In this document: positions 14,030 through 31,614 of the stretch, piece after piece
Layout: each line of letters begins with the position of its first letter
Numbering within the stretch: position 1 is the stretch's first letter
Source: Eubacteriales bacterium
Lineage (GTDB): Bacteria > Bacillota > Clostridia > Oscillospirales > CAG-272
Length of the DNA stretch: 41,524 bases
Assembly: GCA_045602305.1 (NCBI GenBank)
Contig: JAZSBJ010000040.1
Coordinates: 1-41,524 of the forward strand
Reading direction: 5' to 3'
Position numbers and translations under genes: made by a program
Notes under the pieces: generated by a model
Told to the model about the DNA's origin: nothing
Seen by the model: the letters and a program-made list of their open reading frames with translations, nothing else
Database searches by the model: none

Positions 14030-14055
14030 AAAAATCTCCTTGGTTCTTTTGAAAA

Positions 14056-14084
14056 AGTATACCACAAAACGCTTGCTTTGTCAA
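14056..14084 (-). promoter_or_regulatory. Sigma-A type promoter (TTGACA-N17-TATACT with a TG extension) for GH43
   Basis: On the minus strand, TTGACA is at 14084-14079, the spacer is 17 nt and ends in TGG, and TATACT is at 14061-14056. Confidence 0.6.
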
Positions 14085-14888: not shown

Positions 14889-16073
14889 TTAAAATTTACG
14901 CCAAACCATCTTGTTGACAACACCCGTGTAAGACTGAATGATCTTAACCACCTTGGTCGAAACGTTTTCTTCTACGTAGGTGGGGACGGGGATGCCGTGG
15001 TCGCCCTCACTGTTCATTGAAACGGCGGTGCCGACTGCCTGCAAAAGGCTGTTTTCGTCAATACCGGCGAGGATGAAGCAAGCCTTGTCAAGCGCCTCGG
15101 GGCGCTCGGTCGAGGTGCGGATGCAAACGGCGGGGAAGGGGTGTCCGACCGAGGTGAAGAAGGAGCTTTCCTCGGGGAGCGTACCGCTGTCCGAAATGAC
15201 GGCAAAAGCGTTCATTTGTAAACAGTTGTAGTCGTGGAAGCCAAGCGGCTCGTGCTGAATGACGCGGGAATCGAGCTTGAAGCCACTCTTTGCAAGACGG
15301 TTGCGGCTGCGCGGATGGCAGGAGTAAAGAATGGGCATATCGTACTTTTGTGCGATTTTGTTGATGGCGGTGAAAAGGCTCATAAAGTTCTTTTCGGTAT
15401 CGATGTTTTCTTCTCTGTGTGCCGAAAGAAGAATGTACTTGCCCTTCTCGAGCCCAAGACGCGCGTGAATATCGCTCGCCTCGATCTCGGCGAGGTTTTC
15501 GTGAAGCACCTCTGCCATCGGCGAGCCCGTCACGTAGGTGCGCTCCTTGGGGAGTCCGCACTCGTGCAGGTATCTGCGTGCGTGCTCGGAGTAGGCAAGG
15601 TTTACGTCCGAGATAATGTCAACGATACGGCGGTTGGTTTCCTCGGGCAGGCACTCATCCTTGCAACGGTTGCCAGCTTCCATATGGAAGATGGGAATGT
15701 GCAGTCGCTTGGCGGCGATCGCAGAGAGGCAGGAGTTGGTGTCGCCGAGCACGAGAAGCGCGTCGGGCTTGATCTGGTTCATCAGCTTAAAGGAGCAGTT
15801 GATGATGTTGCCAACGGTAGCACCCAGGTCGTCGCCCACGGCGTCCATATATACCTCGGGGGCTGCGAGCTTTAAGTCGCGGAAGAAGACGCCGTTTAAG
15901 TTGTAGTCGTAGTTTTGTCCCGTGTGGGCAAGAATGCAGTCAAAATATTTGCGGCACTTGTTGATGACGGCGGCAAGACGGATGATCTCGGGACGCGTAC
16001 CCACGATGATCAAGAGCTTAAGTCTTCCGTCGTTTTGAAAGGAAATATCGCTGTAATCAAGTTTGATGTCCAT
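14889..16073 (-). CDS. fnlC: UDP-2-acetamido-2,6-dideoxy-L-talose 2-epimerase / non-hydrolysing UDP-GlcNAc 2-epimerase family (FnlC/Cap5G/WbjD type)
   Basis: The sequence reads LKLLIIVGTRPEIIRLAAVI...HTGQNYDYNLNGVFF...DTNSCLSAIAAKRLHIPIFHMEAGNR. It is the last gene of an fnlA-fnlB-fnlC order. Confidence 0.8.
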   Translation of the reverse strand: MDIKLDYSDISFQNDGRLKLLIIVGTRPEIIRLAAVINKCRKYFDCILAHTGQNYDYNLNGVFFRDLKLAAPEVYMDAVGDDLGATVGNIINCSFKLMNQIKPDALLVLGDTNSCLSAIAAKRLHIPIFHMEAGNRCKDECLPEETNRRIVDIISDVNLAYSEHARRYLHECGLPKERTYVTGSPMAEVLHENLAEIEASDIHARLGLEKGKYILLSAHREENIDTEKNFMSLFTAINKIAQKYDMPILYSCHPRSRNRLAKSGFKLDSRVIQHEPLGFHDYNCLQMNAFAVISDSGTLPEESSFFTSVGHPFPAVCIRTSTERPEALDKACFILAGIDENSLLQAVGTAVSMNSEGDHGIPVPTYVEENVSTKVVKIIQSYTGVVNKMVWRKF

Positions 16074-16107: not shown

Positions 16108-17304
16108 TTATACCACTTCAAAAAAAGTGTCGGGGTGATTTGGGTCGAACTGCTCGTTCGCCCACATCACCGTAACGAGATTTTCGGTGTCTGAGAGGTT
16201 GATGATGTTGTGTGTGTAGCCGGGGAGCATATGGATGGCGCGGATTTCATCGCCTGAAACCTCAAAATTCAAGACCTCGTCCGTGCCGAGCTTTCGCTGT
16301 TGGATAAGTCCCTTACCGCTGACGACGATGAAGAATTCCCACTTGGTATGATGCCAATGCTGTCCCTTGGTGATGCCGGGCTTCGAGATGTTCACGGAGA
16401 ACTGTCCGCACTTTTCGGTGCGAAGCAGCTCGGTAAAGGAGCCACGCGCGTCCACGTTCATCTTTAGGGGGAAGGACGCCTTTTCCTTGGGCAGATAGGA
16501 AAGATAGGTGGAGTATAGCTTTTTTGCAAAGCTGCCGTTAGGAATCTCGGGCATCAAAAGCGTTTGGGGCTGTCCTTTAAAGGATTCGAGCAGAGAAACG
16601 ATCTCGCCGAGCGTGACCTTGTGCGTTACGGGTGCGGCACAGTATTTGCCGCCGTCACAAAGGACGGTGTCTGTGCCGTCAAAGGTGCAACGGTGCTCAC
16701 GCCCCTCAAGGGCGCATAGCATCTCATCGACAAGATCGTCGATGTAAAGAAGCTCGAGGCGCACAGACGGGTCGTTTACCGTGTAGGGCAGGTCGCAGGC
16801 AAAGGCGTTGCAAAAGGTCGCCACTGCCGAGTTGTAGTTGGGGCGGCACCATTTGCCGAAGAGGTTGGGGAAGCGGTAAACAAGCACACGGGCTCCCGTT
16901 TCTTCGGCGTAGGAGAACATAAGCTCCTCACCTGCCTTTTTGCTTCTGCCGTACTCGCTGTCGTAGCGTCCGATGCAGGTCGCTTGGATGGACGAGGAGA
17001 TCATTACGGGGCAGGTGTTTTTGTGCTTTTTGAGGGTGTCAAGGAGCGTGGAAGCAAAGCCAAAGTTGCCCGCCATAAACTCCTCAGTCGATTTTGGGCG
17101 GTTGACGCCCGCAAGGTTGAATACGAAGTCGCATTCGGCGCACGCCTCGTCAAGGAGAGAGGCGGGGGAGTCGATGTCGTATAAATAGAGCTTTTCCACC
17201 GAGAGGGCGGGGTGTGTTCTATCCTTGCCGTCCCGCACACACTCAAGCGCCGCTGCGAGGTTCTTTCCAACGAATCCCGCGGCACCCGTAATCAAAATCT
17301 TCAT
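16108..17304 (-). CDS. fnlB: Two-domain SDR plus cupin reductase/epimerase (FnlB/CapF/WbjC type)
   Basis: The N-terminal Rossmann motif is MKILITGAAGFVGKNL. The C-terminal cupin region reads ARGSFTELL...GITKGQHWHHTKWEFFIVVSG. Its start overlaps the fnlA stop in TAATG. Confidence 0.8.
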   Translation of the reverse strand: MKILITGAAGFVGKNLAAALECVRDGKDRTHPALSVEKLYLYDIDSPASLLDEACAECDFVFNLAGVNRPKSTEEFMAGNFGFASTLLDTLKKHKNTCPVMISSSIQATCIGRYDSEYGRSKKAGEELMFSYAEETGARVLVYRFPNLFGKWCRPNYNSAVATFCNAFACDLPYTVNDPSVRLELLYIDDLVDEMLCALEGREHRCTFDGTDTVLCDGGKYCAAPVTHKVTLGEIVSLLESFKGQPQTLLMPEIPNGSFAKKLYSTYLSYLPKEKASFPLKMNVDARGSFTELLRTEKCGQFSVNISKPGITKGQHWHHTKWEFFIVVSGKGLIQQRKLGTDEVLNFEVSGDEIRAIHMLPGYTHNIINLSDTENLVTVMWANEQFDPNHPDTFFEVV

Positions 17305-18353
17305 TACAGTCTTCCGTCCTTTGCGAGCTCTTCTTGGATATACGCAAGAGAAGCGATCTTTGCTTTGGTTTCTTCTACGCTGAGAAGCTTCGTGTTGTTG
17401 GAGTTGAACTCGGTCAAGGTGTTGCGCTCTGCGTCGCCCTTGTTAAAGTACTTGTCGTAGTTGAGTCCGCGCTTGTCGCAGGGCACACGGTAGAAGTTGC
17501 CCATATCGATGGCGTTTGCACATTCCTCGTTGGTGAGCAGGGTTTCGTACATCTTCTCGCCGTGGCGAATGCCGATGACCTTGATTGCGTTCTTGTCGCC
17601 GCCAAACAGCTCACAAACCGCCTCAGCCTGCGTTTGAATGGTGCAAGCGGGTGCCTTCTGTACGAGGATATCACCGCTTTCGCCGTGCTCAAAGGCGAAG
17701 AGCACGAGGTCAACTGCCTCGTCAAGCGACATAATGAAGCGCGTCATCGTGCCGTCGGTGATGGTGATGGGGTTGCCGCTTCTGATCTGCTCAATCCAAA
17801 GCGGAATGACAGAGCCGCGCGAGCACATTACGTTGCCGTAACGGGTGCAGCAGATCTTAGTCTTTTCGGGGGATACGGTGCGGGATTTGGCGACGATGAC
17901 CTTTTCCATCATTGCCTTGGACGTACCCATTGCGTTGACGGGATATGCCGCCTTATCGGTCGAGAGGCAAACGACGTTCTTAACGCCCGCTTCGATCGCG
18001 GCGGTCAAAACGTTCTCGGTGCCGAGCACGTTGGTCTTGACCGCCTCAATGGGGAAAAATTCGCACGAGGGTACCTGCTTGTGCGCTGCCGCGTGGAAGA
18101 TGTAGTCTACACCGTGCATCGCGTTCTTCACCGAAGCGAGATCGCGCACGTCGCCGATGTAAAACTTGATCTTTTCCGCCACCTCGGGCATTTTTGCCTG
18201 AAATTCGTGACGCATATCGTCCTGCTTCTTCTCATCGCGCGAGAAGATGCGGATCTCCCCGATATCGGTACGCAAGAAGCGGTTGAGCACCGCATTTCCA
18301 AAGCTACCGGTACCGCCGGTGATCAGTAGAGTTTTTCCAGTAAACAAAGACAT
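17304..18353 (-). CDS. fnlA: UDP-GlcNAc 4,6-dehydratase/5-epimerase (FnlA/CapE/WbjB type)
   Basis: The start is the ATG at 18353 after GGGAGG. The sequence reads MSLFTGKTLLITGGTGSFGNAVLNRFL...IRIFSRDEKKQDDM, which is typical of the CapE/FnlA/PseB clade. Confidence 0.85.
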   Translation of the reverse strand: MSLFTGKTLLITGGTGSFGNAVLNRFLRTDIGEIRIFSRDEKKQDDMRHEFQAKMPEVAEKIKFYIGDVRDLASVKNAMHGVDYIFHAAAHKQVPSCEFFPIEAVKTNVLGTENVLTAAIEAGVKNVVCLSTDKAAYPVNAMGTSKAMMEKVIVAKSRTVSPEKTKICCTRYGNVMCSRGSVIPLWIEQIRSGNPITITDGTMTRFIMSLDEAVDLVLFAFEHGESGDILVQKAPACTIQTQAEAVCELFGGDKNAIKVIGIRHGEKMYETLLTNEECANAIDMGNFYRVPCDKRGLNYDKYFNKGDAERNTLTEFNSNNTKLLSVEETKAKIASLAYIQEELAKDGRL

Positions 18354-18371
18354 ATGGTTGCCTCCCAAATA

Positions 18372-18416: not shown

Positions 18417-19133
18417 TTACACAAGGCGTGCGACAGCCGCAACGACCTTGGCAAGATCCTCGGGATTGTCAATCTCGGTGCAAAGACGATCCTTTACATC
18501 GAGAATGTGGATGGGACACGTGTCCGTGATCTCGTTGAGTGCGACCTCGGCGTAGACGCCCGTCTTTCCCGCCTCGCAAAAGTCAATGATATGGTCAAGC
18601 CAGGTATTCCACTCGGCCTTGTTGAGCTTGTAGAGCGCTTGGGCTTCCATTGCGTTCTCAAAAAACTCAACGCCAACCTTTTTAACCATACCGTCAATGA
18701 CGACTGCCTTGAAGTCCTTTTCGGGCAGGGGAAGGGTCGACGAAACCTTCATACAGCTGTGGGGAAAGCGGAGTGCATCTTCCAGCACCGAGGCTTCAAA
18801 GACGAGGTCGCCGTGCAAAAGAAGGATGTCCTCATCCTTTAACACCTCGCGCGCGCAGTAGATGGAGTAGATATAGTTGGTTTTATCGTAAATGGGATTT
18901 TTTACGAAGGTAAAGTGAATGGGGAGCGCGAGAGAATGGCAGTAGTCAACGAGGATCTCGTCAAAATATCCCGTTGTCATTACCACCTCGCGAATGCCCG
19001 CCTCAGAGAGAAGGCGAAGCTGACGGGAAAGAATGGAGTCGGTAGCGGAAACGTCGGTCATACATTTGGGATGCTCACTCGTTAGGACACCCATACGGCG
19101 TCCGAGTCCCGAGTTTAAAATTAAAGCTTTCAT
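18417..19133 (-). CDS. LicC-like nucleotidyltransferase (phospho-alcohol or phosphonate cytidylyltransferase family)
   Basis: The N-terminal NTP-binding loop is MKALILNSGLGRRMG. The overall layout resembles LicC (YSIY, LLLHGDLVF, C-terminal EIDNPEDL). Length is 238 aa. Confidence 0.6.
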   Translation of the reverse strand: MKALILNSGLGRRMGVLTSEHPKCMTDVSATDSILSRQLRLLSEAGIREVVMTTGYFDEILVDYCHSLALPIHFTFVKNPIYDKTNYIYSIYCAREVLKDEDILLLHGDLVFEASVLEDALRFPHSCMKVSSTLPLPEKDFKAVVIDGMVKKVGVEFFENAMEAQALYKLNKAEWNTWLDHIIDFCEAGKTGVYAEVALNEITDTCPIHILDVKDRLCTEIDNPEDLAKVVAAVARLV

Positions 19134-19155
19134 TGCTTGTCCTCCACGGTGAACC

Positions 19156-20325: not shown

Positions 20326-20401
20326 AGGTTTGACTCCTTTTTGATACGCAATCGTCCGATTGCACATTTCAGTTTGAAAATTACAGCTTTATCTGCCCTT
20401 A

Positions 20402-21919
20402 TTATGCTTTACCCTGCGGTTTCTTTTTGAAAAACTTTTTACCCACGATCGTTTTAAGCTCGCTGCGATAGCCGATGAGCGATACGCAAACGAGGATGAC
20501 GAGGGTGATACCGAACACGGCAAAGCCGTTCAATGCCCAATGGAAATAACCGTTGATTGCCTCAAGCGGCAAAAGAAGGTTGGAAAGCAAGACAACCCCA
20601 AGGCAGGGGACGAAAAATAGAACGACAGTTTTCCCAAAGCGTCTGAGCGGACGGTTTAGGATGTTTTTTCTGAGATAAATGACCTGTGCGATCAAGCGGT
20701 AAACTATGGCGATAAGAAAGCTGAGCGCAACGCCTGCAAGGTCGAATTTGTGAACGAGAATGAGAGAAAGGACGATGTTGATGCTCACCTCGATATAGGC
20801 ATATTTTGCGGTCTGCTTAAAATGCCCCGCCGCGTATGTCGCATTGATATAGGGCTCGCGGAAGCAGTATAGCATTTCTGCAGTCATAAGAAGGATGCCG
20901 AATAGAGGTTGAATATAGTTGGCGTCCGTGACATTCGCCGTGTACACCTTTATGAAGGGGACGACGAGGACGATGCCGCACGAGAACAAGAGAACAGAGA
21001 GAAACGCCATACCGAACTCGTAAAGATTGAACGCCCTGTTGGCTTCCTTGATATCGTCCTTCGCCAAGACGCTGCCAAAGGAAGGGAGAAGCGTAGAAGC
21101 AATCGAAACGGCAAAGTTACGAATGGAGTTGGCGACCATAAGGTAGACCGAAAAAACGGATACCATAGCGAGCGTTGAAAAGACGGTGAGTACGATGACG
21201 CTGATGTTTTTATTGATAAAGTGCGCCAAGGTGTGCCCAAAGCCCGACCAGCGTTGATTTAACGCATCGGTGTCGCGCGGGATCTTCTTGTCGAGCTTAA
21301 AGCGCTTTCGCGTATAAAGCGAGAATGCGACGGGCTGCAGGAAAAGAACGGTGGCACTCAGCGCCTTCATAATGATTAAGTCGGGGAAAATGCGGGAGAA
21401 TACGATAACGAGCACCATATTGAGCAGCATAACGCCGGCTTTTGTCAAGGAAAGGAAGTAATGGTTTTGAGATGCGCGGATCAAGACTTGGTGCGTTAAG
21501 GAGAAGAAATATTGCGTAAAAAGATTGGTCGCAAGAACCAAGACAAGCACTAAAATATAGGGATAAGAGAAGGTGGACTTTACGACCAAGGGATAAACGA
21601 GAGCCAAAACGGCGGCGTAAACGATATAGATAAGCCCGATCTGCTTGAAAAAGCGTTGTGTTGCATTAAAAATCGCGCTGATCTTTTCTTGGTTGTTTTC
21701 GCGTAACGGCTTGTATAAAGAAGCCATAACGACGCTGCTTAAGCCACCCTCAAGCAGCGAAATATAGCTCAAGCACTGGTTGATCGAGGTGGCAAGTCCG
21801 TTTGCCTCGGAGCCGAGAACGGAAATGAAAATTTTTGGGACGATCAGTCCGTTGAGTATCGCAACCAGCTCTAAAAGAGAGGTTGCGAGCAGATTTCTTC
21901 GAATAATTTTTTTGCTCAT
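20402..21919 (-). CDS. wzx: Wzx-type oligosaccharide flippase (MOP superfamily)
   Basis: About 505 aa and highly hydrophobic, with roughly 12-14 helices. The N-terminus reads KKIIRRNLLATSLLELVAILNGLIVPKIFISVLGSEANGL. I prefer the ATG at 21919, because the ATG at 21931 abuts the SD. Confidence 0.8.
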   Translation of the reverse strand: MSKKIIRRNLLATSLLELVAILNGLIVPKIFISVLGSEANGLATSINQCLSYISLLEGGLSSVVMASLYKPLRENNQEKISAIFNATQRFFKQIGLIYIVYAAVLALVYPLVVKSTFSYPYILVLVLVLATNLFTQYFFSLTHQVLIRASQNHYFLSLTKAGVMLLNMVLVIVFSRIFPDLIIMKALSATVLFLQPVAFSLYTRKRFKLDKKIPRDTDALNQRWSGFGHTLAHFINKNISVIVLTVFSTLAMVSVFSVYLMVANSIRNFAVSIASTLLPSFGSVLAKDDIKEANRAFNLYEFGMAFLSVLLFSCGIVLVVPFIKVYTANVTDANYIQPLFGILLMTAEMLYCFREPYINATYAAGHFKQTAKYAYIEVSINIVLSLILVHKFDLAGVALSFLIAIVYRLIAQVIYLRKNILNRPLRRFGKTVVLFFVPCLGVVLLSNLLLPLEAINGYFHWALNGFAVFGITLVILVCVSLIGYRSELKTIVGKKFFKKKPQGKA

Positions 21920-21961
21920 ATCGTGGAGCATCTCCTTGCTTTAGACGGAATGTGCGGCAAA

Positions 21962-22939
21962 TCAACCGACGAATACGCCGAATTTTCTTGCGAGTCTTAT
22001 GGTGGGGCGTTCAATATGCAAAAGAATTGCCCAACACAAGAGGCGGTATGTTTTCTTTAAACGTTTTTCCTTCAAGATAGCCTTTTTGTTTTTTCGAATC
22101 TCTTGATTGACCGTTTGGCGCTCGCTAATCTTGCCTTTTGTGACGGCAATGCGAGAGGCAAGCACCAGAAGATTCTTGTAGTAGAGAAAATCGGCATCCT
22201 TTGCAAGCGCGGGGAACTGTACAAGGCATCGGTCGCGCACATCTTTAAAGTTGTAATAAAGTCCCATCGTTTTGGGGGCAAAGGCAGATTTTGACGTGCT
22301 TCCCGCACGTTGAAAATAGTAATAAAAGGGCTTTGCACAATGCACGACGCTTTCGGCCCTGGTCAGTGCATCGAATACGAAGGGAACGTCCTCGCAGATG
22401 TACCCGAGAGGGTACCGCACGTCCTTCAAAACCTCTCGCTTGAACAGTTTGTCGCAAGAGGAAGAGTCGATGGCACGGTAGGTGAGGAATCGCTTGACCG
22501 CTTCCTCGGTATTCATTACGGTTTCTTCGTCTAAGTGAAAGCTCTGAGATTCGATGGCGGTATCGCCTTTCACGGTGAATCTCCCGCACACGGCAATGTC
22601 GCAACCGTTTCTTTGCAAGGCGGACAAAAGCACCTCGTACATATTGGGAGCGATCCAGTCATCGCTGTCGACAAAACCGATATAATCTCCTTTTGCCATA
22701 GAGATGCCGCGATTTCTTGCGCTGGCTTGTCCCCCATTCGGCTGGTGAACGACGACAATGCGAGAGTCCTTGGCACCGTATGCGTCGCAAAGATTTCCCG
22801 ACGCGTCCGTAGATCCATCGTTGATTAAAAGAATCTCAAGATTTTCGTGGGTTTGGGAAAGGATGGAACGGATACATTTTTCAAAATACGGCTCAACGTT
22901 GTAGACGGGAACGATTATGCTGATCAGGGGCAGGTTCAT
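21962..22939 (-). CDS. Glycosyltransferase family 2
   Basis: The sequence reads ISIIVPVYNVEPYFEKCIRSILSQT...LLINDGSTD...NGGQASARNRGI...YIGFVDSDDW. Confidence 0.9.
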   Translation of the reverse strand: MNLPLISIIVPVYNVEPYFEKCIRSILSQTHENLEILLINDGSTDASGNLCDAYGAKDSRIVVVHQPNGGQASARNRGISMAKGDYIGFVDSDDWIAPNMYEVLLSALQRNGCDIAVCGRFTVKGDTAIESQSFHLDEETVMNTEEAVKRFLTYRAIDSSSCDKLFKREVLKDVRYPLGYICEDVPFVFDALTRAESVVHCAKPFYYYFQRAGSTSKSAFAPKTMGLYYNFKDVRDRCLVQFPALAKDADFLYYKNLLVLASRIAVTKGKISERQTVNQEIRKNKKAILKEKRLKKTYRLLCWAILLHIERPTIRLARKFGVFVG

Positions 22940-24125
22940 CGTTTTTTCCTTCTTTCTTATCCTCTGTTTTGCTGTCTAATAGCGCTTTTCCGCAAAAGAT
23001 CGCCAAAAGAAAATACAGGGTGTAGTCTAAGGCTCCGGTGATGAGGGATGCTTCCATCGTCATATGCAAAAGTCCGGCAATGAAGCAGGCGAAGGGGACG
23101 CAAGACAAACGTTTTTCTTTGTTTTCATTCAAAAGCATACGGCCTGTGCTAATCAAGCCGATGAGGAAAAACACGGCGGTCGGCAATGAAAAATCCCAAG
23201 CAATATCAAGCATTGTATTATGGGCGCCGAGTTCTTCGCTCAGACTGTGTGCGATGGTTTGCCCTATCTTCATTGAAAAGGGCTCGTTCAAAACGGTTTC
23301 TACGACCGTCGGCCAAATTTTTTCTCGTCCCGTCCAAGCGGAAGATCCCATAAACGTGAAGTCAACGCCGAGCTTTTCGACAAGCCAAGTTACGATAAAC
23401 GGCAGGATGGCGAAAAGAAGCATAGCCACGGAAAAAACAGCCTTTTTCCAGCGGGGAAGGAGAAAGAGCAACAGGCAAAGCCCCATACAAAGGATGCAAG
23501 CGGAAAAGGCAGTACGGCTACCCGTACGGAACGCTCCGTAAAGAAGACCGATGGAAAGCACCCACCAAAAGACATTTTTCTTTTTTTCAATGCACAAGAA
23601 CGAGAAAATGCCCAGGAAAACGGACATATAAAGAAGACCGCTTTGGTTCTCGTTTTGCGTGTAAAGCAAGAGCATTCCGTCGCGATAGCTGGACGGAATA
23701 AATGCAAAGACCACAAGAAGCGCCGCGACAGCCGTTAGTAAATAAAAGAAGACTTTTGCATCCTTAGATACGGGGCGTATGGCGCGGCTTGAGAAGAGAA
23801 GCGGGAACGCGAGCAAGAAGGTGATGGACGATTCAAGCTGCGATCTGTATACAAGCAAGAGCTTGAGAGCGATCCAAATGAAGAGAAGTAAAAATGCAAG
23901 GAAAAGCAAAAACGAAAAGGATGTTTGCTTTAGTTGCAGCTTTTGGAGAATGCAGTATGCCAAGAACAGAAATACAAAAACGTATAAGAACTTAAAAAGG
24001 GTTGACGCGATGGAAGAAAATCCCAATAATTGGAAAATATGCCGAACGCAAAGCAAAACGGCAATCAGGAAAAAGACCGGATTGCTTTTCTCGGTGTTCT
24101 TTTGTGATTGAAGCGATTTTGGCAT
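22893..24125 (-). CDS. wzy: Wzy-type polymerase / O-antigen ligase-like membrane protein
   Basis: 410 aa with about 10-11 hydrophobic helices and one larger loop (GSSAWTGREKIWPTVVE). It sits between glycosyltransferases. Its 3' end overlaps the GT2 start by 47 nt. Confidence 0.7.
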   Translation of the reverse strand: MPKSLQSQKNTEKSNPVFFLIAVLLCVRHIFQLLGFSSIASTLFKFLYVFVFLFLAYCILQKLQLKQTSFSFLLFLAFLLLFIWIALKLLLVYRSQLESSITFLLAFPLLFSSRAIRPVSKDAKVFFYLLTAVAALLVVFAFIPSSYRDGMLLLYTQNENQSGLLYMSVFLGIFSFLCIEKKKNVFWWVLSIGLLYGAFRTGSRTAFSACILCMGLCLLLFLLPRWKKAVFSVAMLLFAILPFIVTWLVEKLGVDFTFMGSSAWTGREKIWPTVVETVLNEPFSMKIGQTIAHSLSEELGAHNTMLDIAWDFSLPTAVFFLIGLISTGRMLLNENKEKRLSCVPFACFIAGLLHMTMEASLITGALDYTLYFLLAIFCGKALLDSKTEDKKEGKNDEPAPDQHNRSRLQR

Positions 24126-24216: not shown

Positions 24217-25371
24217 TTAGGTGTTCTTTTGATACAGGGCGATATACTGATCTAGCATTTTTGCTTTGGAAAAATCGGCGTGCGCGATTTGGGCACCGTC
24301 AAGACGCGCCTTTACGGCGTTGAGGTCCCCTTGCGCTACGACGTTTTCTTTTGGCACGCTTTCGGGACTGCCGCCCGTGTTATACGTAATAACGGGCGTG
24401 CCGCACGCCTGTGCCTCGAGATTTACGGTGGGATAGTTGTCGTTGTAGGTGAGATTTAAAAACACGTCTGCGGCGGTGTAAATTTCCGCAAGCTCTGCCG
24501 TGTTGTTCGTTCTGGTGATTCCCAAAATCTTAGGCGGAAGCTCTGCTTTTTGTTTTTCTGTCAACCCGACAAGAACGATTTTGTACGAATCATCAAGCAT
24601 CTCGGCGAGCCGGACGAAATCGTAGAGGCCCTTGCTTCGGCTCCACGCGCTTGCTACTCCCAAAATGATTTTTTTGTTCTCAAGGGCGTGCCTTTGACGA
24701 AAATCTCCCGAGGTGGGCTTAAAGATCGAAGTGTCGATCCCGTTATTGATGATCTCAACGGGGAATTTTTCGAGAAACGATTGGCGCACAAGGTCTGCCA
24801 GCCAAAGAGAGGGCGTTACAACCGTTGCGTTTTCAAGAGAGGTAAACATTTTCTTCTTGACTTGAAAATTGTGCTTGCTCCGATCAACGATGCTCTTAGG
24901 ATAAGCGGCGTGCTTGTGACAGTTGTAGCACCCCTCTTTCCATTTGTCGCATCCAATAAGATTGCAACAGTGCCCGGTAAATGCCCAGCAGTCGTGAAGG
25001 GTCCAAACGACGGGCTTTTTTGAAGCCTTAAGATAGTCGAACAGGGGACGGAGATGAAGATAATAGCCGTGTAGATTGTGCAGATGGATAATGTCGGGGT
25101 CGTATGCCTTGACCCACCGGATAAACTTTTCGGTTGCACGACCGCTTCCAAAGCCTGAAGCATCCCAAAGACGAGCCTTCAGCCCGTGAAGCTTTACAGA
25201 AAGGGACGATCCGATACGGATGGCACGGACGGCGTGCTTGGGGGGCACGGATTCTCTGCCAAAGGCAATTTTGCATTCGTGTCCCAACGCCTCAAGCGAT
25301 TCGGCAAGATCGGTGCATATTCTTCCCGTGCTGCGAATGCCGCACACGGAGTTTATCATCAATATCCTCAT
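24217..25371 (-). CDS. Glycosyltransferase family 4 (Cys-rich HDCW..TGHC..C..C..C subtype)
   Basis: The sequence includes MRILMINSVCG, IIHLHNLHGYY, WTLHDCWAFTGHCCNLIGCDKWKEGCYNCHKH and, in the C-terminal GT-B half, NLEAQACGTPVI. Confidence 0.8.
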   Translation of the reverse strand: MRILMINSVCGIRSTGRICTDLAESLEALGHECKIAFGRESVPPKHAVRAIRIGSSLSVKLHGLKARLWDASGFGSGRATEKFIRWVKAYDPDIIHLHNLHGYYLHLRPLFDYLKASKKPVVWTLHDCWAFTGHCCNLIGCDKWKEGCYNCHKHAAYPKSIVDRSKHNFQVKKKMFTSLENATVVTPSLWLADLVRQSFLEKFPVEIINNGIDTSIFKPTSGDFRQRHALENKKIILGVASAWSRSKGLYDFVRLAEMLDDSYKIVLVGLTEKQKAELPPKILGITRTNNTAELAEIYTAADVFLNLTYNDNYPTVNLEAQACGTPVITYNTGGSPESVPKENVVAQGDLNAVKARLDGAQIAHADFSKAKMLDQYIALYQKNT

Positions 25372-25380
25372 TGACGCTCC

Positions 25381-26580
25381 TTATTGCATAATTATTTTAT
25401 ATGCCTTTTCGACCGTGTAGTTTTCGTGGAGATAGCGGATGCCTGCCTCACGCATCGCGTCGGCGTCGGCGGCGAGGGCTTGTGCAACGCAAGAGGAGAA
25501 AGCGGTGACGTCGTTCGACTCGCAAGAGAAGCCGAAGCCGCCGTCCTCAATAACCTGCCCGACGTCGGTGTTCGGGTCGGTTGCAGCAAGCACGGGAAGC
25601 CCTGCTTGAATATAGGAGAGAAGTCTTGACGGGAAGTTCGGGATGGTAAAGCGGTGGTCAAGGAAGATCATACCGATGTCGCACGCGGCGACCATCTTGT
25701 CGTAATCCGCCTTGGGCAGGCGCTTAAGGAGCTTTGCGTTCGTAAATTTTTCAGCGTCAAAGAATGCGGCGAGCTTTGCGTACTCCGTGCCGTCGCCAAC
25801 GACGAGAAAATACGCGTCAGCGTTGTTCTTTTCTGCCTTCAAGCACTCCATAAGAAAGGGAATGCCCTGCGGGCGACCGAGGTTGCCGCCGTATACGAAC
25901 ACCTTTTTGTCAAGGGGAATGCCGTATTTTTCGCGCAGAGCGACACGCTCTGCGGCTGTTACGCGCATATCCTGCGGCTCAATGGCGTTGGGGCAGATTT
26001 CGACCTTTGCACGATCCACCTCGGGATTGTGCTTCAGCACATAATCCACGTTCGCCTGTGACATACAGCCGATGCGGTCGGAGATGGCGTAGAGCTTCTT
26101 TTCCTTCTTGCGGAAATACTTGTAAAGAATGCCCTTAACGCCCGATTTCGACATCATACCGATGTCAACCGCGTTTTGCGGGAAAATGTCCTTTAAGAGC
26201 AGATAGGTCCTTGCCCCATCGCGCTTTTTGACGAATTTTACGGTGTCATAATGCGTGATGGGGGGCGTGGGATAGAGGACGAGATCAAATTTCACGTCCC
26301 CGAAATGCTTTTTGATCGCCTTGATATAAAGACGGGGAAGCATCACGGTGGTGATGCCCTTTTGAATGGGGTTCGCCTTTTTGTTTTTGCCGATCTTTAC
26401 GCGCAAAACGTGATAACCGTCCTCGTTTGTGAGGTTGGTTTCTGCATTTGCCGCTTTTTCAAGACCGCATACGATATAAATGTTGTGCCCGTTTCTCTTG
26501 AACTCGTGTAAAAGGTCGAGCGAAATGGAGTGCGCGCTCGCGTGAGAGATCGCACTGATGGAAGCATACAAGATGTTCAT
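25381..26580 (-). CDS. Glycosyltransferase family 4, WbuB-like (often an L-FucNAc/6-deoxy-HexNAc transferase)
   Basis: The start is the ATG at 26580 (MNILYASISAISHASAHSISLDLLHEF...). The region YPTPPITHYDTVKFVKKRDGARTYLLLKDIFPQNAVDIG is typical of WbuB-type enzymes found with fnlABC. Confidence 0.7.
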   Translation of the reverse strand: MNILYASISAISHASAHSISLDLLHEFKRNGHNIYIVCGLEKAANAETNLTNEDGYHVLRVKIGKNKKANPIQKGITTVMLPRLYIKAIKKHFGDVKFDLVLYPTPPITHYDTVKFVKKRDGARTYLLLKDIFPQNAVDIGMMSKSGVKGILYKYFRKKEKKLYAISDRIGCMSQANVDYVLKHNPEVDRAKVEICPNAIEPQDMRVTAAERVALREKYGIPLDKKVFVYGGNLGRPQGIPFLMECLKAEKNNADAYFLVVGDGTEYAKLAAFFDAEKFTNAKLLKRLPKADYDKMVAACDIGMIFLDHRFTIPNFPSRLLSYIQAGLPVLAATDPNTDVGQVIEDGGFGFSCESNDVTAFSSCVAQALAADADAMREAGIRYLHENYTVEKAYKIIMQ

Positions 26581-26590
26581 AACGTGTCCT

Positions 26591-27829
26591 TTATGCGTCG
26601 TATTTTTCAATCAAGTCGTGGCGAATGAGGTCCTTGCCGTCCGTACTGATGGCGCGGATGCGCGCGTTTGCCTCGGCGTGCTTGCGGTGCATTTCTTCTT
26701 CGGTGTCGGCAACGACTCTGAAGCAGGCGGCGCGGTCACCGCTGCCGTTGATGGTGCCGAATTTTGCACCCTTTTGCTTGTAAAGAATGGGATCGGTGAT
26801 TACACCCTCGGCGAAAAGCTCGTCAAAGCCTTCAAAATGATCAAGCTCGCCCGGATGACAATAGATATGCTCAACCACTTCGACGGGCTTGAAGGGCTCG
26901 GGCACCGCGTCGGCAACGTGGGGCGTTTCGCCGAGCGTTAGGTCGACGACCGCTTTGATGACGTCAAAGCCCGAAAGCTTCTTGGTAGAGATAAAGGTGA
27001 TACCGCCGCCGCTTCTCGCACAAAACTCGACAACGTTGATCTTTTTTCCGTCGTGGAGAAGCTGGACGATCATAGGGCTGTTTTTCAGTCCGAAGCCTGT
27101 GGCGATCTTTTGCACCGCATCGGCAATCTGTGCCTTGATATCATCGGATGCACACGAGGGCATACGAACGCGGTTGATAATGAATTTTCCGTCTTCCCCG
27201 ATCTTGTAAAGGTCGAACAGGGCAAGCACGTACGCTTTTCCGTTTTCAACATAACCGCTGACGGAGATCTCTTCGCCCTCGAAGAATTCTTCGATAATGG
27301 CGGTCTTGGAACGGCTGATGCGGACGGCGTTTTCGAATGCCGCCTTCGCTTCTTCAAGGCTCGTGACCTTGGCAACGCCGCGAGAAGAATATGCGTCGAC
27401 GGGCTTTACGATCAGCGGATAAGAAAGGTGCTTGATCGCGTTCTCGTCGAAGGCTTCGAGAATTACGAATTTCGTGGTGGGAACGCCGTTGTCCAAGAAA
27501 ATCTTTTTCATAAGAGATTTTTTCGAGGCGTTCTCGGCAATTTTTGCGTCGATATACCAAGGAAGCCCAAGCTCCTCAGCAACGATCGCGACGACCTCAA
27601 GCGCTTGGTCGGCGCAGGCCGTGATCAGAAAATCGACCTTTTCTTCGATAGCGAGTGCCTTGATAGCGGGGATGTCAAAAACCGACACCTTGCAGAACTT
27701 GTCCGCCAGGGGGCGGGCAACAACATTTTCGTTGGCATCCGCGAGGATGGTGTACACCCCGCGACGCTTTAATTCCTTGACAAGCGCGGCCTGCGGCACA
27801 CCGCCGCAAAGGACAAGACCTTTTTTCAT
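26591..27829 (-). CDS. ATP-grasp domain ligase (substrates unknown)
   Basis: It has a pre-ATP-grasp Rossmann-like N-terminus (MKKGLVLCGGVPQAALVKELKRRG) followed by KKSLMKKIFLDNGVPTTKF...YPLIVKPVDAYSSRGV...IIEEFFEGEEISVSG...VEFCARSGGG. The RBS is AAGGAG. Confidence 0.8.
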   Translation of the reverse strand: MKKGLVLCGGVPQAALVKELKRRGVYTILADANENVVARPLADKFCKVSVFDIPAIKALAIEEKVDFLITACADQALEVVAIVAEELGLPWYIDAKIAENASKKSLMKKIFLDNGVPTTKFVILEAFDENAIKHLSYPLIVKPVDAYSSRGVAKVTSLEEAKAAFENAVRISRSKTAIIEEFFEGEEISVSGYVENGKAYVLALFDLYKIGEDGKFIINRVRMPSCASDDIKAQIADAVQKIATGFGLKNSPMIVQLLHDGKKINVVEFCARSGGGITFISTKKLSGFDVIKAVVDLTLGETPHVADAVPEPFKPVEVVEHIYCHPGELDHFEGFDELFAEGVITDPILYKQKGAKFGTINGSGDRAACFRVVADTEEEMHRKHAEANARIRAISTDGKDLIRHDLIEKYDA

Positions 27830-27846
27830 AACAATATCTCCTTGGA

Positions 27847-28527
27847 TTATTTTCCGATGGGCTCTTTTTCGGCTTCCTGTTCCTGCTCTGCGGGCGGAAC
27901 GATGGGCGTGGGCGGGTTGCCGTTAAGCGCGTCGTTTTTGGTGAAGGCGACGCCGTCCTGCTTAAAGACGACGGCGACCGTCTTAAAGAAAATTTTAATG
28001 TCGAACCAAAGGCTGAATTTTTCAATGTATTCGACGTCGTATTCGATCTTTTCTGTCCAAGTAAGGTCGTTTCTTCCGTTGACCTGTGCCCAGCCCGTGA
28101 TGCCGGGACGCATATTGTGGCGCGTCTTTTGTCTTTCGTTGTAGCGCTCCACCTGGTAGGGAAGCGTGGGACGAGGACCGACGAAGCTCATAGAGCCGCT
28201 GAGAATGTTAAAGAGCTGCATCAGCTCGTCAAGGCTGGTTTTGCGTAGGAAGGCGCCAACCTTGGTGATGCGCTTTTGGGATTCAAGGGGATTGCCGTTT
28301 TCGTCGTAGCTCTCCTCGGGAATTCGCATCGTGCGGAATTTGTAGATCTTGAAGATCTTTCCGTTCTTACCGACGCGCTCCTGCGTGAATACGGCAGGAC
28401 CCTTAGACGTCAGCTTGATCACGATCGGGATCACGATCAAAACGGGGATCGCGATGAGGAAAAGAATGGCAAGAAGGGAAACGGTGATGTCAAACGCGCG
28501 TTTGATGAAAAGTTGAATTGCTCTCAT
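27847..28527 (-). CDS. Initiating phosphoglycosyl transferase, small monotopic PglC/EpsL/WcfS type
   Basis: The sequence reads [16 protein letters not shown]...[25 protein letters not shown]...[22 protein letters not shown]...[13 protein letters not shown]. An unusual ~35-aa Pro/Glu-rich C-terminal tail follows. Confidence 0.9.
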
Positions 28528-28551
28528 AAGTACTTTCTCGCTTTCTGTGGA

Positions 28552-29811
28552 TCAGCGAAAGCAGCTCTTGACGATCTCGATGATCGCGGCTTGCTCGGCT
28601 TCGGTCATTTTGTTGTCGGACGGCAGGCAGAGCCCGCGTGCGAAGATGTCGGCGCCGACGTCGGCGCATCCGCCAGCGATGTAGGCGTTCGTGCGGCAGC
28701 GGCCCGTGCCCTCGCGGGTGACGAACTCGTGCATACGGTACATCGGCTGCATATGCATCGGCTTCCAAATGGGTCTGCCCTCGGCGTTGTGCGCGGCAAG
28801 CGCCTCAAGGATCTCGGTGGGGCAGGATGTTCCGGGCTCGGAGATGTAGAGCGCTTCCGAATCGCCGCGGACTTGACGGCACATAGCGTCCTTGTCAATG
28901 ATGAGGCAGGAGAGCCAGAAGTTCGGCTCGGTGCCCTCGGTGATGGGGTTCATTGTGACGGGAAGGTCGCGGAAGCCCTCGCGGTATCTTTCGTAGACCG
29001 CTTTCTTTCCCGCGATATGCTCGGCAAGGTGGGGGTACTGACCGCGAACGACGCCTGCGATGACGTTGCTCATACGGTAGTTGTAGCCGACTTCCTCGTG
29101 CTGATACCAAGGCGCATTCTCGCGGCTTTGCGTCGACCACTTGCGTACCTTGTTTGCCGTTTCGAGGTCGTTTGTGAGGAAGCATCCGCCCGCGGACCCC
29201 GTGATGATCTTGTTGCCGTTGTAGCTGACGGCAGAATAGTCGCCAAAGGAGCCGCATTGACGCCCGTCGATGGTAGCGCCCATCGCTTCGGCGGCGTCCT
29301 CAATAAGAAGCGCGCCGTGCTTTTCGCAGATGGCTTTGATCTCGTCCATTCTGCCGGGGAAGCCGTAGAGCTCTGCGGAAACGACGAGCTTTACCTCGGG
29401 ATACATCTCGAACGCCTTTTCGAGCGCGACGGGATCCATATTCCAAGAGCTTTCCTCGGTGTCGATAAAGACGGGAATTCCGCCCTCGTAAACGACGGGA
29501 TTCAGGGTGGCGTCAAAGGTCATATCCGAGCAAAATACGCGCTTGCCCTCAAGCGCCCCGTGGCTGATGGCGGGCTTGCCGTACAGCCTTTCCCCCGCGT
29601 GCTTTACCGCAAGGTGAAGTGCGGCGGTGCAGCAGGAAAGCCCTACCGCGTAACGCATTCCTGCGCTTTTGGCGGCGATGCGCTCCACCTCGTTGATGTT
29701 TTCGCCGACGGTGGACATCCAGTTGGTTTCATACGCCTCTTGGACGTACTTGATCTCGTCCCCGTGCATCGTGGGGGTGGCGAGCCAGACCTTTTTTTCA
29801 AAGCGTTCCAT
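28552..29811 (-). CDS. DegT/DnrJ/EryC1-family PLP-dependent sugar aminotransferase (PglE/EpsN-like)
   Basis: The ATG is at 29811 (MERFEKKVWLATPTMHGDEIKYVQEAYETNWMSTVGENI...). An internal SYNGNKIITG provides the PLP Lys context. It is the first gene after the operon promoter. Confidence 0.85.
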   Translation of the reverse strand: MERFEKKVWLATPTMHGDEIKYVQEAYETNWMSTVGENINEVERIAAKSAGMRYAVGLSCCTAALHLAVKHAGERLYGKPAISHGALEGKRVFCSDMTFDATLNPVVYEGGIPVFIDTEESSWNMDPVALEKAFEMYPEVKLVVSAELYGFPGRMDEIKAICEKHGALLIEDAAEAMGATIDGRQCGSFGDYSAVSYNGNKIITGSAGGCFLTNDLETANKVRKWSTQSRENAPWYQHEEVGYNYRMSNVIAGVVRGQYPHLAEHIAGKKAVYERYREGFRDLPVTMNPITEGTEPNFWLSCLIIDKDAMCRQVRGDSEALYISEPGTSCPTEILEALAAHNAEGRPIWKPMHMQPMYRMHEFVTREGTGRCRTNAYIAGGCADVGADIFARGLCLPSDNKMTEAEQAAIIEIVKSCFR

Positions 29812-29849
29812 AGACAAAGACCTCGTCTTTTTTTACTTTTATCTATGCT

Positions 29850-29878
29850 ATTATAATATAAATATATAAGAATGTCAA
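29850..29878 (-). promoter_or_regulatory. Sigma-A type promoter, exact TTGACA-N17-TATAAT, at the head of the polysaccharide operon
   Basis: On the minus strand, TTGACA is at 29878-29873, the spacer is 17 nt and AT-rich, and TATAAT is at 29855-29850. Confidence 0.7.
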
Positions 29879-29930: not shown

Positions 29931-29959
29931 CGAAAAAGCCCGTTCCAAAGGGAACGGGC
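29931..29959 (-). terminator. Intrinsic terminator after the aldo/keto reductase gene
   Basis: The stem is GCCCGTTCC (29938-29946) paired with GGAACGGGC (29951-29959), followed on the minus strand by TTTTT. Confidence 0.85.
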
Positions 29960-29973
29960 GGGTGCTATAAGCG

Positions 29974-31098
29974 TTATTCGAGGGCTTTGGAAAAATCGGC
30001 GAAGATCTCGGAGATCTTGATGCCCTGCGGGCATTTTTCTTCGCAGGCGCGGCAGCCGATACAAGAGGTAGGGAGCCCCTCTTCGCCGTATTTTTTGACG
30101 AGGCGGGCGCGTTCGGGGGCTGTACCTGTAAGACAGGTGTTGTTGTACACGGAGAGAAGCCGCGGAATAGAAAGCGCCGCGGGACAAACGCTCATACAGT
30201 ATTTACACTCGGTGCAAGCGAGCGTTTTCTTGGCGAGCAGGCGCTCGGCGATGGCAAAGAGCGCTGCCCTTTCCGTTTCGTTTAAGGGCTTTCTCTCGGC
30301 AAAGGTACGGGCGTTGTCCTCCACGATCTCCTCGGTCGTCATACCCGAAAGCACCACGGTGACCTCGGGGATGGATTGTAAGAAGCGAAAACTCCACGCG
30401 CCGATGCTCTCGTCGGGGCGGAGCGCCTTTAAGAGCGCCTCATCCTCGGGCGAGAGGGAAGCGAGCCTACCACCGCGCAAGGGCTCCATTACCCAAATGG
30501 GAAGCCCCTCACGGCGTAAAATGTCCACCTTTTCCTTCGCCTCTTGGAGCGTCCAATCCAGCCAGTTGAGCTGCATTTGGCAAAAGTCGAACATAGGACG
30601 GTAGGCGGCGAGAAATTTTTCTAAGGTGGGGTTGGAGGCGTGCGTGGAAAAGCCGAAATAGCGGAAGCGCCCCTGCTTTTTTTGCTCGGCGAGAAATTCG
30701 GGAATACGGAGCGCGGGGTCGGTAAAGACGGGGTAGGTCATATCGCTTAGGTTGTGAATGAGATAAAAGTCAAAGTAGTCGACGCCCGTTTTCTCAAACT
30801 GCTTTTCAAAGAGCGCGCGCATTCCCGCTTCGCCCTCGAAATCGTACCAAGGCATTTTCGTGGCGAGATAGTAGCTCTCGCGCGGGTAGCGGGAGAGGAT
30901 CTTGCCGACCGCTTCCTCGGAAAGCCCGTTGTGGTAGAACCACGCGGTGTCAAAGTAGTTGACGCCGCGCTCGATGCAAAGGTCGAAAAGGCGGGTGGTC
31001 GCCGCCATATCCACGCTTCCGTCGGGGTGGGTGGGGAAGCGCATTCCGCCCATACCGAGCATAGAAAGGGACAACCCTTTGAAATCGTTGTATATCAT
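29974..31098 (-). CDS. Aldo/keto reductase with a C-terminal 4Fe-4S ferredoxin-type domain
   Basis: The AKR N-terminus reads LGMGGMRFP...GVNYFDTAWFYHNGLSEEAVGK. The C-terminal Cys clusters are CTECKYCMSVCP and CIGCRACEEKCP. Confidence 0.85.
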   Translation of the reverse strand: MIYNDFKGLSLSMLGMGGMRFPTHPDGSVDMAATTRLFDLCIERGVNYFDTAWFYHNGLSEEAVGKILSRYPRESYYLATKMPWYDFEGEAGMRALFEKQFEKTGVDYFDFYLIHNLSDMTYPVFTDPALRIPEFLAEQKKQGRFRYFGFSTHASNPTLEKFLAAYRPMFDFCQMQLNWLDWTLQEAKEKVDILRREGLPIWVMEPLRGGRLASLSPEDEALLKALRPDESIGAWSFRFLQSIPEVTVVLSGMTTEEIVEDNARTFAERKPLNETERAALFAIAERLLAKKTLACTECKYCMSVCPAALSIPRLLSVYNNTCLTGTAPERARLVKKYGEEGLPTSCIGCRACEEKCPQGIKISEIFADFSKALE

Positions 31099-31137
31099 CG
31101 AACCTCTCCTTTTTGTATCAAGAAGTTTGCAAAAATA

Positions 31138-31614
31138 TCAATCTTTGTCAAGTATGGTTTCCATTCCGATCTTTTGCGGACGGAGCCCGAGCTTCTCGTA
31201 GAAGCGGATGGCACCCTCGTTGCACGCCCAAACGTTGAGGGTGAGATTATAGCATCCCTCGCTTTTTGCAAAGGCAAGCACGAAGTCGTAAAGTGCGCGC
31301 CCTACGCCTGTGCCGCGGGTGCTTTCGTCGACGCAAAGGTCGTCGATGTACAGCGTTTTGACATCGGTGAGAATGTTGTCGTTTTCGTGCCGGATAAAGA
31401 CGCAAAAGGCATAGCCCAAAATGTTGTCCCCGTCCTCGGCTACGAAAACGGGACGGCGATCGTCCGCAAGAATGGCAAGAAGCTCCCCGTCGGTATACTT
31501 TTTGGCGCCCGCCTTAAAGATGTCGGGGCGTCCTGCGTTGTGCACGTTTAATACCTGACAAAGCAGGCGGTTTAAATGGGGTAGATCGCGGCTTTCCGCG
31601 CGTCGAATGGTCAT
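31138..31614 (-). CDS. GNAT-family N-acetyltransferase
   Basis: 158 aa. The acetyl-CoA loop reads LCVDESTRGTGVGRALYDFV, with a C-terminal NEGAIRFYEKLG. Confidence 0.85.
   Translation of the reverse strand: MTIRRAESRDLPHLNRLLCQVLNVHNAGRPDIFKAGAKKYTDGELLAILADDRRPVFVAEDGDNILGYAFCVFIRHENDNILTDVKTLYIDDLCVDESTRGTGVGRALYDFVLAFAKSEGCYNLTLNVWACNEGAIRFYEKLGLRPQKIGMETILDKD

Follow-up and report, generated by a model that had tools for sequence, protein, structure and literature searches.

In the canonical N,N′-diacetylbacillosamine (diNAcBac) module (PglF/CapD, PglE/EpsN, PglD/EpsM, and PglC/EpsL), a sugar aminotransferase and a small phosphoglycosyl transferase (PGT) are accompanied by an acetyl-coenzyme A (acetyl-CoA) N-acetyltransferase built from PglD_N and Hexapep domains. 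Here, we analyze a stretch of 41,524 nucleotides from an uncultured Eubacteriales bacterium of the gut (class Clostridia; GenBank assembly GCA_045602305.1, contig JAZSBJ010000040.1; "the window" in the following), which holds a 13-gene, minus-strand Wzx/Wzy glycan operon (29817 to 14889) that opens with genes for an aminotransferase, a PGT, and an ATP-grasp enzyme. The aminotransferase and the PGT are homologous to those of the diNAcBac module, which likewise stands at the head of a Wzx/Wzy operon, but the window encodes the ATP-grasp protein where the module has its acetyltransferase. In the window, activation of the acyl group would proceed through an acyl-phosphate in place of a CoA thioester. 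The combination of a PglD_N and hexapeptide transferase with an aminotransferase and a PGT, which marks a PglD-type module, is not found in the window.

A second described relative is the Pat/Pyl system of Bacillus cereus ATCC 14579. In this system, a DegT-type aminotransferase is reported to make UDP-4-amino-4,6-dideoxy-HexNAc, an ATP-grasp ligase joins an acid to the 4-amine to give UDP-FucNAc-4N-(2)-oxoglutarate, and a small PGT is encoded in the operon (Hwang et al., J Biol Chem 2014, via PMC11626204). A 2024 survey of monotopic PGTs further places ATP-grasp and sugar-modifying genes near the PGTs that fall into the sequence cluster of the B. cereus enzyme and predicts that those PGTs use an acylated sugar (PMC11626204). 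The window has the same gene content, in that genes for a DegT aminotransferase and a small PGT accompany that of the ATP-grasp protein; the likeness lies in this content and in the described reaction, and both ligases belong at least to the ATP-grasp superfamily. The window differs from the Pyl system in gene order, with the ATP-grasp gene following the PGT gene, and in that its sole dehydratase is FnlA-like. An earlier reading of the window from its sequence alone (the sequence-only reading) had regarded such chemistry as undescribed for loci of this type, a claim that does not hold in view of the 2014 Pat/Pyl precedent and of the ATP-grasp genes already diagrammed near PGTs in the survey (PMC11626204). 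Our literature search for 4-amino sugars aminoacylated by ATP-grasp enzymes returned nothing beyond Pyl. This very common, as yet uncharacterized ATP-grasp family probably carries out a reaction of a kind established for Pyl in 2014.

An ATP-grasp gene in the acetyltransferase slot

The start of the operon is laid out as the sequence-only reading had described it, with aminotransferase, PGT, and ATP-grasp genes in this order and a 17-bp spacing that separates the PGT stop (27847) from the ATP-grasp start (27829), as borne out by the open reading frame (ORF) listing and by Pfam. According to the same listing, no intergenic space between 29817 and 14889 is large enough for an extra gene. The Pfam search, which took in the submitted window ORFs of at least 150 amino acids (aa), detected no Hexapep or PglD_N domain in any of them, in agreement with the claim that the locus contains no hexapeptide-repeat acetyltransferase. 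Similarly, the claimed lack of a UDP-sugar dehydrogenase agrees with the absence of a UDPG_MGDP_dh domain from these ORFs, although such a gene could be located elsewhere in the genome.

What the slot holds in a related operon can be seen on the chromosome of Bacillus sp. N5-665 (locus L051, filed among plasmids), which encodes GalU, a CapD-type dehydratase (603 aa), a DegT aminotransferase, a PGT, an acetyltransferase, a GT4-family glycosyltransferase (GT), FnlA, FnlB, and FnlC. The acetyltransferase is a 205-aa protein with PglD_N and Hexapep domains, and its gene lies between those of the PGT and the GT4. The L051 GT4 is 53% identical to GT4a, the first of two GT4 enzymes encoded in the window, and the FnlA, FnlB, and FnlC proteins of the two loci are 68%, 50%, and 51% identical, respectively. 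Within this otherwise like gene order, the window has its ATP-grasp gene between the PGT and GT4a genes, at the position of the L051 acetyltransferase. PglD-type acetyltransferases adjoin the PGT also on a B. thuringiensis plasmid (L052) and in the B. cereus eps1 loci L057 to L060 and L063. Conversely, when the fetched DNA of 50 loci encoding ATP-grasp relatives was searched by tblastn, the seed proteins revealed no PglD-type acetyltransferase and no UDP-sugar dehydrogenase; a Ugd seed had no match in 51 loci.

The ATP-grasp protein is also physically tied to the PGT. P0122, a natural fusion of 621 aa, combines a PGT (residues 1 to ~205) with an ATP-grasp ligase (residues 216 to 617) whose identity to the window protein is 50%, and the stretch that matches the polar tail of the stand-alone PGTs serves as the linker to the ligase. 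This tail, 20 to 30 aa in length and rich in K, E, T, P, and Q, follows a GIAFTK..DA motif at the end of all PGT orthologs, so that the Pro/Glu-rich terminus of the window PGT, which had been singled out as unusual, is in fact a shared property of these enzymes. The neighborhood set covered 44 genomes from Oscillospirales, Lachnospiraceae, and further Clostridia; 26 of its loci encode a PGT that belongs to the same ORF cluster and mostly adjoins the ATP-grasp gene, and tblastn adds a few more distant ones. GT4a orthologs (58 to 88% identical) are encoded directly 3′ of the ATP-grasp gene in 19 loci, and a DegT aminotransferase is found in most related loci. In the loci of the close ligase orthologs (58 to 73% identity), the genes almost always follow one another as PGT, ATP-grasp, and GT4a, and the DegT aminotransferase gene lies either directly 5′ or 3.7 kb 5′. 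The synteny with L051, the mutual exclusion of ligase and acetyltransferase across 50 loci, and the fusion with the PGT support the view that the ATP-grasp gene occupies the acetyltransferase slot, as the sequence-only reading had proposed.

A carboxylate-amine ligase and its likely acceptor

The ATP-grasp protein passes four Pfam models, namely, PF13535 ATP-grasp_4 (60 bits; cutoff, 27), PF07478 Dala_Dala_lig_C (46.6 bits; cutoff, 24), PF01071 GARS_A (34.9 bits; cutoff, 27), and PF02655 ATP-grasp_3 (31.6 bits; cutoff, 23.2). It scores 28.4 bits against a cutoff of 29.4 for LAL_C2 (PF18603), a C-terminal domain specific to L-amino acid ligases that appears in the precomputed annotations of most of its homologs, and no curated NCBIfam equivalog fits it. 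Across 44 sequences from both subfamilies of the family, with identities down to 24%, residues K142, E180, E268, and R272 are invariant; they correspond to the central-domain Lys, the hinge Glu, the Mg-binding Glu, and the catalytic Arg of the E-x-x-x-R motif. In the window protein, this motif reads E-F-C-A-R-S-G-G-G, with a Cys where many ATP-grasp enzymes have an Asn, a position at which PurT and PurK carry Ser or Ala. An AlphaFold model computed from the 44-sequence alignment (mean predicted local distance difference test, 91.5; predicted template modeling score, 0.88) was compared with the PDB by Foldseek and matched 4dim, 3vot, 4wd3, and 1kj8 with E values of 1e-24 to 1e-29 and template modeling (TM) scores of 0.69 to 0.85. 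By sequence, the closest solved relatives are 4dim, which is an uncharacterized structural-genomics entry and also among the best PDB matches, and the L-amino acid ligase (LAL) BL00235. For the latter (3vot), the TM scores are 0.81 to 0.85, and for PurT, they are 0.75 to 0.80.

LALs (BL00235, 3vot; RizA, 4wd3; BacD/YwfE, 3vmm) and the glycinamide ribonucleotide transformylase PurT (1kj8) therefore provide the nearest enzymatic models, in that they have the same multidomain ATP-grasp architecture (TM score, 0.69 to 0.85), share the ATP- and Mg-binding residues, and carry out the same type of reaction, joining a small carboxylate to an amine via an acyl-phosphate. They differ from the window protein in that identity in the fold alignments is 16 to 20%, in that they work in a dipeptide or purine context rather than in a glycan operon, and in that the presumed amine in the window would be a nucleotide sugar. 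Judging from its conserved residues and its predicted fold, the 412-aa protein looks like a catalytically intact carboxylate-amine ligase of the LAL/PurT type. LALs and PurT phosphorylate a small carboxylate and hand the acyl group to an amine, which in the case of PurT is located on a ribonucleotide, a fair analogy for the amine of a nucleotide sugar. The weak LAL_C2 match and the LAL and PurT structures among the closest solved ones would also suit an ordinary LAL or purine-pathway-like enzyme whose product is a free dipeptide or metabolite and whose place in the operon is accidental. We consider this highly improbable, because the gene keeps its position between the PGT and GT4 genes in dozens of genomes from several families and lies within a single promoter-to-terminator unit, with gaps of 10 to 17 bp to its neighbors; this position and the fusion to a PGT argue in particular against a free-dipeptide role of the LAL kind.

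Instead, with moderate confidence, we favor the interpretation that the ATP-grasp enzyme does the job of a PglD/EpsM-type acetyl-CoA N-acetyltransferase and N-acylates a 4-amino sugar before the PGT step. In the proposed pathway, a keto sugar would be supplied by the FnlA-like enzyme of the operon or by an enzyme encoded elsewhere, and the DegT enzyme would convert it to a UDP-4-amino sugar. The ATP-grasp enzyme would then phosphorylate a small carboxylate, either an organic acid or an amino acid, and the 4-amine of the sugar, which we infer to be the acceptor, would attack the acyl-phosphate to yield the 4-N-acyl sugar, ADP, and Pi. Next, the adjoining PGT would move the acylated sugar-1-phosphate onto undecaprenyl phosphate, and GT4a would add the following sugar. 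This is probably L-FucNAc from FnlABC, since genes for GT4a homologs and for FnlABC occur together in the window, L049, L051, and L052. Once the repeat unit is completed, Wzx would flip it and Wzy would polymerize it.

Several observations speak against this interpretation. First, modules that make 2-acetamido-4-amino-2,4,6-trideoxygalactose (AAT) leave the 4-amine free and do not require an acyltransferase, so that a missing acetyltransferase need not be replaced at all. Second, in a subgroup of loci with ligases of 45 to 50% identity (e.g., L028 and L029), the aminotransferase and PGT genes flank one for a hexapeptide transferase, which is present in addition to the ATP-grasp gene; this transferase is devoid of PglD_N and may be an O-acetyltransferase. 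Third, the close orthologs in L048 and L050 have no DegT gene within 10 kb. Finally, the window contains no PglF/CapD-type retaining dehydratase, the FnlA-like enzyme being its sole 4,6-dehydratase. With respect to the last point, L049 repeats the combination of the ATP-grasp module with FnlABC and without another dehydratase, which makes it plausible that one FnlA-like dehydratase feeds both sugar branches. For the acylation of the 4-amino sugar, which the sequence-only reading had already put forward, the synteny, the mutual exclusion, the fusion, and the lack of a dehydrogenase count in favor, but the absence of an acetyltransferase by itself, on which that reading had drawn, demands no replacement, as the AAT modules illustrate.

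In a different possibility, the 4-amine would remain unacylated, like that of the AAT-type zwitterionic polysaccharides, and the ligase would activate a glycan carboxyl group (contributed by a uronic acid, a pyruvate ketal, or some other acidic sugar) and amidate it with an amine or amino acid in the manner of Cj1438 or TupA-type enzymes. Amidoligases of this sort are known from capsule loci; Cj1438 of the Campylobacter jejuni capsule, an ATP-grasp protein encoded among surface-polysaccharide genes, resembles the proposed window enzyme in forming an amide on a sugar, and it activates the glucuronate carboxylate of the glycan. The orthologous loci without a nearby aminotransferase would suit such a role, as would the absence of an acetyltransferase, which is normal in free-amine AAT modules. 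Cj1438 needs a uronic acid, however, and our searches revealed no UDP-sugar dehydrogenase or other uronic-acid supply gene in the submitted window ORFs or in the fetched DNA of the 50 related loci; a pyruvyl transferase is likewise missing from the window. In addition, the gene sits in the acetyltransferase slot beside the initiating transferase and not in a late-modification position. The profile and structure searches that the sequence-only reading had suggested returned LAL and PurT relatives and the Dala_Dala_lig_C match, but no structure named Cj1438, be it in the sequence matches (E values up to 1) or in the best 50 by fold. With neither a uronic acid supply nor similarity to Cj1438 in evidence, we regard amidation of a glycan carboxyl as quite unlikely.

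The same acylation might also take place later, with the ligase acting at the membrane, beside the PGT, on a 4-amino sugar already loaded onto undecaprenyl diphosphate. The PGT is the most constant neighbor of the ligase, more so than the aminotransferase, the polar PGT tail is linker-like, and the two proteins occur as a fusion, all of which count in favor of this timing. The fusion, however, equally fits substrate channeling from the ligase to the PGT, no membrane segment is predicted in the ligase, whose model is that of a soluble LAL/PurT-like enzyme, and Pyl, the one characterized precedent, works on the UDP-sugar. Acylation after the PGT step is therefore unlikely in our view, and we infer that the ligase acts ahead of the PGT, on the nucleotide sugar.

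Operon boundaries and remaining genes

The features of the operon are compiled in the table below. For the aminotransferase, the ORF finder lists a TTG start at 29817, but homologs align from an ATG at 29811, which is the probable start judging from the alignment. In NCBIfam, this protein reaches 272 bits with a LegC-family model and 166 bits with the PseC model, both under the equivalog cutoffs. A similar correction may apply to GT4a, for which the ORF finder lists a TTG at 26610; an ATG at 26580 opens a protein with the N terminus MNILYASIS... (compare homologs starting MNVLF...), and GT4a probably starts there, which would leave a gap of ~10 bp after the ATP-grasp stop instead of a 20-bp overlap.

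Features of the glycan operon and its boundary
Feature	Position	Strand	Basis
Terminator-like hairpin	29938..29959	(-)	9-pair stem with 7 GC pairs, then T-run; directly past the aldo/keto reductase stop at 29974
Promoter-like site of the glycan operon	29850..29878	(-)	TTGACA-17-TATAAT, 12/12 matches to the sigma-70 consensus; 33 bp 5′ of the aminotransferase start
DegT/PglE/LegC-type sugar 4-aminotransferase, 421 aa	28552..29817	(-)	PF01041 (DegT_DnrJ_EryC1), 230 bits
Small monotopic PglC-type PGT, 226 aa	27847..28527	(-)	PF02397 (Bac_transf), 230 bits, residues 9-189
ATP-grasp carboxylate-amine ligase (predicted), 412 aa	26591..27829	(-)	ATP-grasp_4, 60 bits
GT4a glycosyltransferase, putative second-sugar transferase	25381..26610	(-)	Glycos_transf_1 and Glyco_transf_4
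Second GT4 glycosyltransferase	24217..25371	(-)	Pfam
Wzy-type polymerase	22893..24125	(-)	PF04932, 34 bits
GT2 glycosyltransferase	21962..22939	(-)	PF00535, 146 bits
Multipass membrane protein, candidate Wzx flippase	20402..21931	(-)	~12 hydrophobic segments; no Pfam or NCBIfam match
Sulfatase-family (alkaline-phosphatase superfamily) protein, 403 aa	19156..20367	(-)	PF00884, 61 bits
Small nucleotidyltransferase NTP_transf_3, 238 aa	18417..19133	(-)	Pfam
FnlA/CapE-type UDP-GlcNAc 4,6-dehydratase	17304..18368	(-)	Polysacc_synt_2, 359 bits; FnlA model, 515 bits (cutoff, 730); PseB model, 311 bits
FnlB/WbcJ-type reductase	16108..17304	(-)	Pfam, NCBIfam
FnlC/WecB-type UDP-HexNAc 2-epimerase, final operon gene	14889..16073	(-)	wecB model, 213 bits (cutoff, 210)

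The last three genes form an FnlA/FnlB/FnlC-like set, that is, the enzymes for a UDP-L-FucNAc-type sugar. The multipass membrane protein is probably the Wzx flippase; the closest relative of the locus, L045 (GCA_054291565.1), has a Polysacc_synt flippase of equal length. The sulfatase-family protein and the nucleotidyltransferase (18417 to 20367) may add a phospho-linked substituent; in L045, their place is taken by two LicD genes and a pyruvyl transferase gene.

Upstream of the operon lie genes for a HAD hydrolase, a GNAT acetyltransferase, and an aldo/keto reductase, which belong to a separate transcription unit because the hairpin and the consensus promoter intervene. The aldo/keto reductase, encoded just 5′ of the operon (in the region 29974 to 31614, together with the GNAT), carries a C-terminal 4Fe-4S dicluster domain. 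The GNAT (31138 to 31614), two genes 5′ of the operon, had been passed over in the sequence-only reading and was considered as a candidate for the missing acetyltransferase. We rejected it, as it is encoded outside the operon, has no counterpart among the 44 related loci, and finds its best models in RimI and an aminoglycoside acetyltransferase, both far under their cutoffs.

Ligase family, candidate donors, and allelic variation

Sets of aminotransferase, PGT, and ATP-grasp genes, for which the sequence-only reading had suggested mining genomic neighborhoods, do recur, in loci of Clostridia, Enterococcus, and Parabacteroides. At E < 1e-30, the window ATP-grasp protein matches 403 clusters formed at 50% identity, and a sister subfamily is found in Enterococcus faecium, E. 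durans, E. hirae, and Parabacteroides. Cultured organisms are among the carriers. A plasmid of E. hirae (FDAARGOS_1124, NZ_CP068121.1) encodes Wzz, CpsD, CpsB, CapD, a DegT aminotransferase, an oxidoreductase, a PGT, an ATP-grasp protein, and GTs; this ATP-grasp protein is 27% identical to that of the window, has the same domain set, and returned 5523 matches, including proteins of E. faecium and E. durans, when used as a query. In Parabacteroides distasonis (TSDC17.2-1.1), the genes are arranged as ATP-grasp, PGT, ATP-grasp, DegT. Gut Bacillota and Bacteroidota harbor a large number of family members, and we found no characterized one among them.

Some loci contain more than one ligase. In the Bacteroidales loci L040 to L043 and L062 (the P. 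distasonis locus; NZ_OY725767.1, 7964 to 12213), two or three tandem ATP-grasp paralogs are encoded beside the DegT aminotransferase, and the copies of L062 flank the PGT; this hints that two or more acyl or aminoacyl units might be attached step by step. Six other loci (L004 to L006, L012, L037, and L049; e.g., L006, 1591 to 3570) encode, directly 3′ of the aminotransferase, a 659- to 661-aa protein with an N-terminal ATP-grasp domain, so that they hold two different ATP-grasp ligases; the C-terminal ~330 aa of this protein have no Pfam match. ATP-grasp proteins beside sugar transferases of polysaccharide loci are also known as the families PF14397 ("sugar-transfer associated") and PF14305 (TupA-like), neither of whose models matches the window protein. 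A PF14397 ATP-grasp protein of ~390 aa is encoded between or beside the PGT and the ATP-grasp protein in L003 (889 to 2058), L007 (4787 to 5968), L048 (8033 to 9220), L050 (8566 to 9735), and L010, and the window has no second ligase of this type.

A TupA-like protein was also observed in the B. cereus group. The eps1 variant L063 encodes a 300-aa ATPgrasp_TupA protein (13175 to 14077) near a flippase, in a locus that also has a PglD-type acetyltransferase, while no ATP-grasp protein was seen in the other B. cereus eps1 loci (L057 to L060). The L063 protein may correspond to the Pyl of the literature. Its comparison with the window ATP-grasp protein gave no similarity (E = 2.2), and if it is Pyl, the window enzyme would be an independent recruitment from the LAL/PurT branch. 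On plasmids, the Bacillus ATP-grasp genes picked up by tblastn all lay in unrelated natural-product clusters. Searches started from the E. hirae ligase and from a Bacillus PGT likewise yielded no Pyl, and the clusters of ten representatives comprised metagenomic proteins only.

Genes that may bear on the acyl donor accompany the ligase in a number of related loci. A DctM-type permease (~452 aa) and a membrane protein of 88 to 91 aa are encoded beside PGT/ATP-grasp pairs, often with a divergent LysR regulator (L046, 11270 to 13981; L048, 11294 to 14027; L049, 7652 to 9299; also L004 to L006, L008, L010, L012, and L037). No periplasmic binding protein was seen at these loci, and the permease may import the carboxylate that is ligated. 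In a subgroup with 47 to 50% identity (L022, L024, and L027 to L030; e.g., L028, 7246 to 12900), a cassette directly 3′ of the ATP-grasp gene encodes an MmgE/PrpD-like protein, an aldo/keto reductase, a fused thiamine pyrophosphate-dependent decarboxylase, a 300-aa protein without a Pfam match, and a PF15617 C-C bond lyase; this set resembles a metabolic route for an unusual organic acid. The window itself has no transporter or acid-biosynthesis gene, suggesting that its acyl donor would be a common metabolite.

A comparison with L045 sets the ligase gene apart from its neighbors. DNA identity is 83 to 92% over the aminotransferase and PGT genes, falls to 66 to 74% exactly over the ATP-grasp gene (window, 26600 to 27830; L045, 2147 to 3379), returns to 82 to 86% over GT4a, and is ~70% from the second GT4 gene on. 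The proteins follow the same pattern, with identities of 90% for the aminotransferase, 97% for the PGT, 73% for the ATP-grasp protein, 88% for GT4a, and 71% for the second GT4. Because identity drops at the ligase between conserved flanks, the alignment suggests that this gene is an exchanged or diverged cassette, and allelic differences in donor specificity would fit such a divergence. It is tempting to speculate that PGT-adjacent ATP-grasp genes in general are swappable specificity cassettes, whose alleles, and in other genomes stacks of two or three ligases around the PGT, would equip the first sugar of the repeat unit with differing acids, amino acids, or short peptides. The drop in identity, the tandem ligases, and the acid transporters and acid-biosynthesis genes fit this idea rather than prove it, and we put it forward as a tentative and, at present, somewhat doubtful possibility. 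If it is true, the surface glycans of gut Bacillota and Bacteroidota would be varied in charge and antigenicity with unchanged glycosyltransferases, and aminoacyl- and peptidyl-decorated polysaccharides would form a widespread, unrecognized class.

If the ATP-grasp enzyme indeed acylates the 4-amino sugar, the first sugar of the glycan would carry an amide-linked acid or amino acid and not an acetate, and charge and epitope would be altered at the reducing-end sugar of each repeat unit. Once the acyl donors are named, it would further be possible to predict substrates for an entire class of small PGTs, a need stated in the 2024 survey (PMC11626204), and new surface chemistry of gut commensals and opportunists would come to light.

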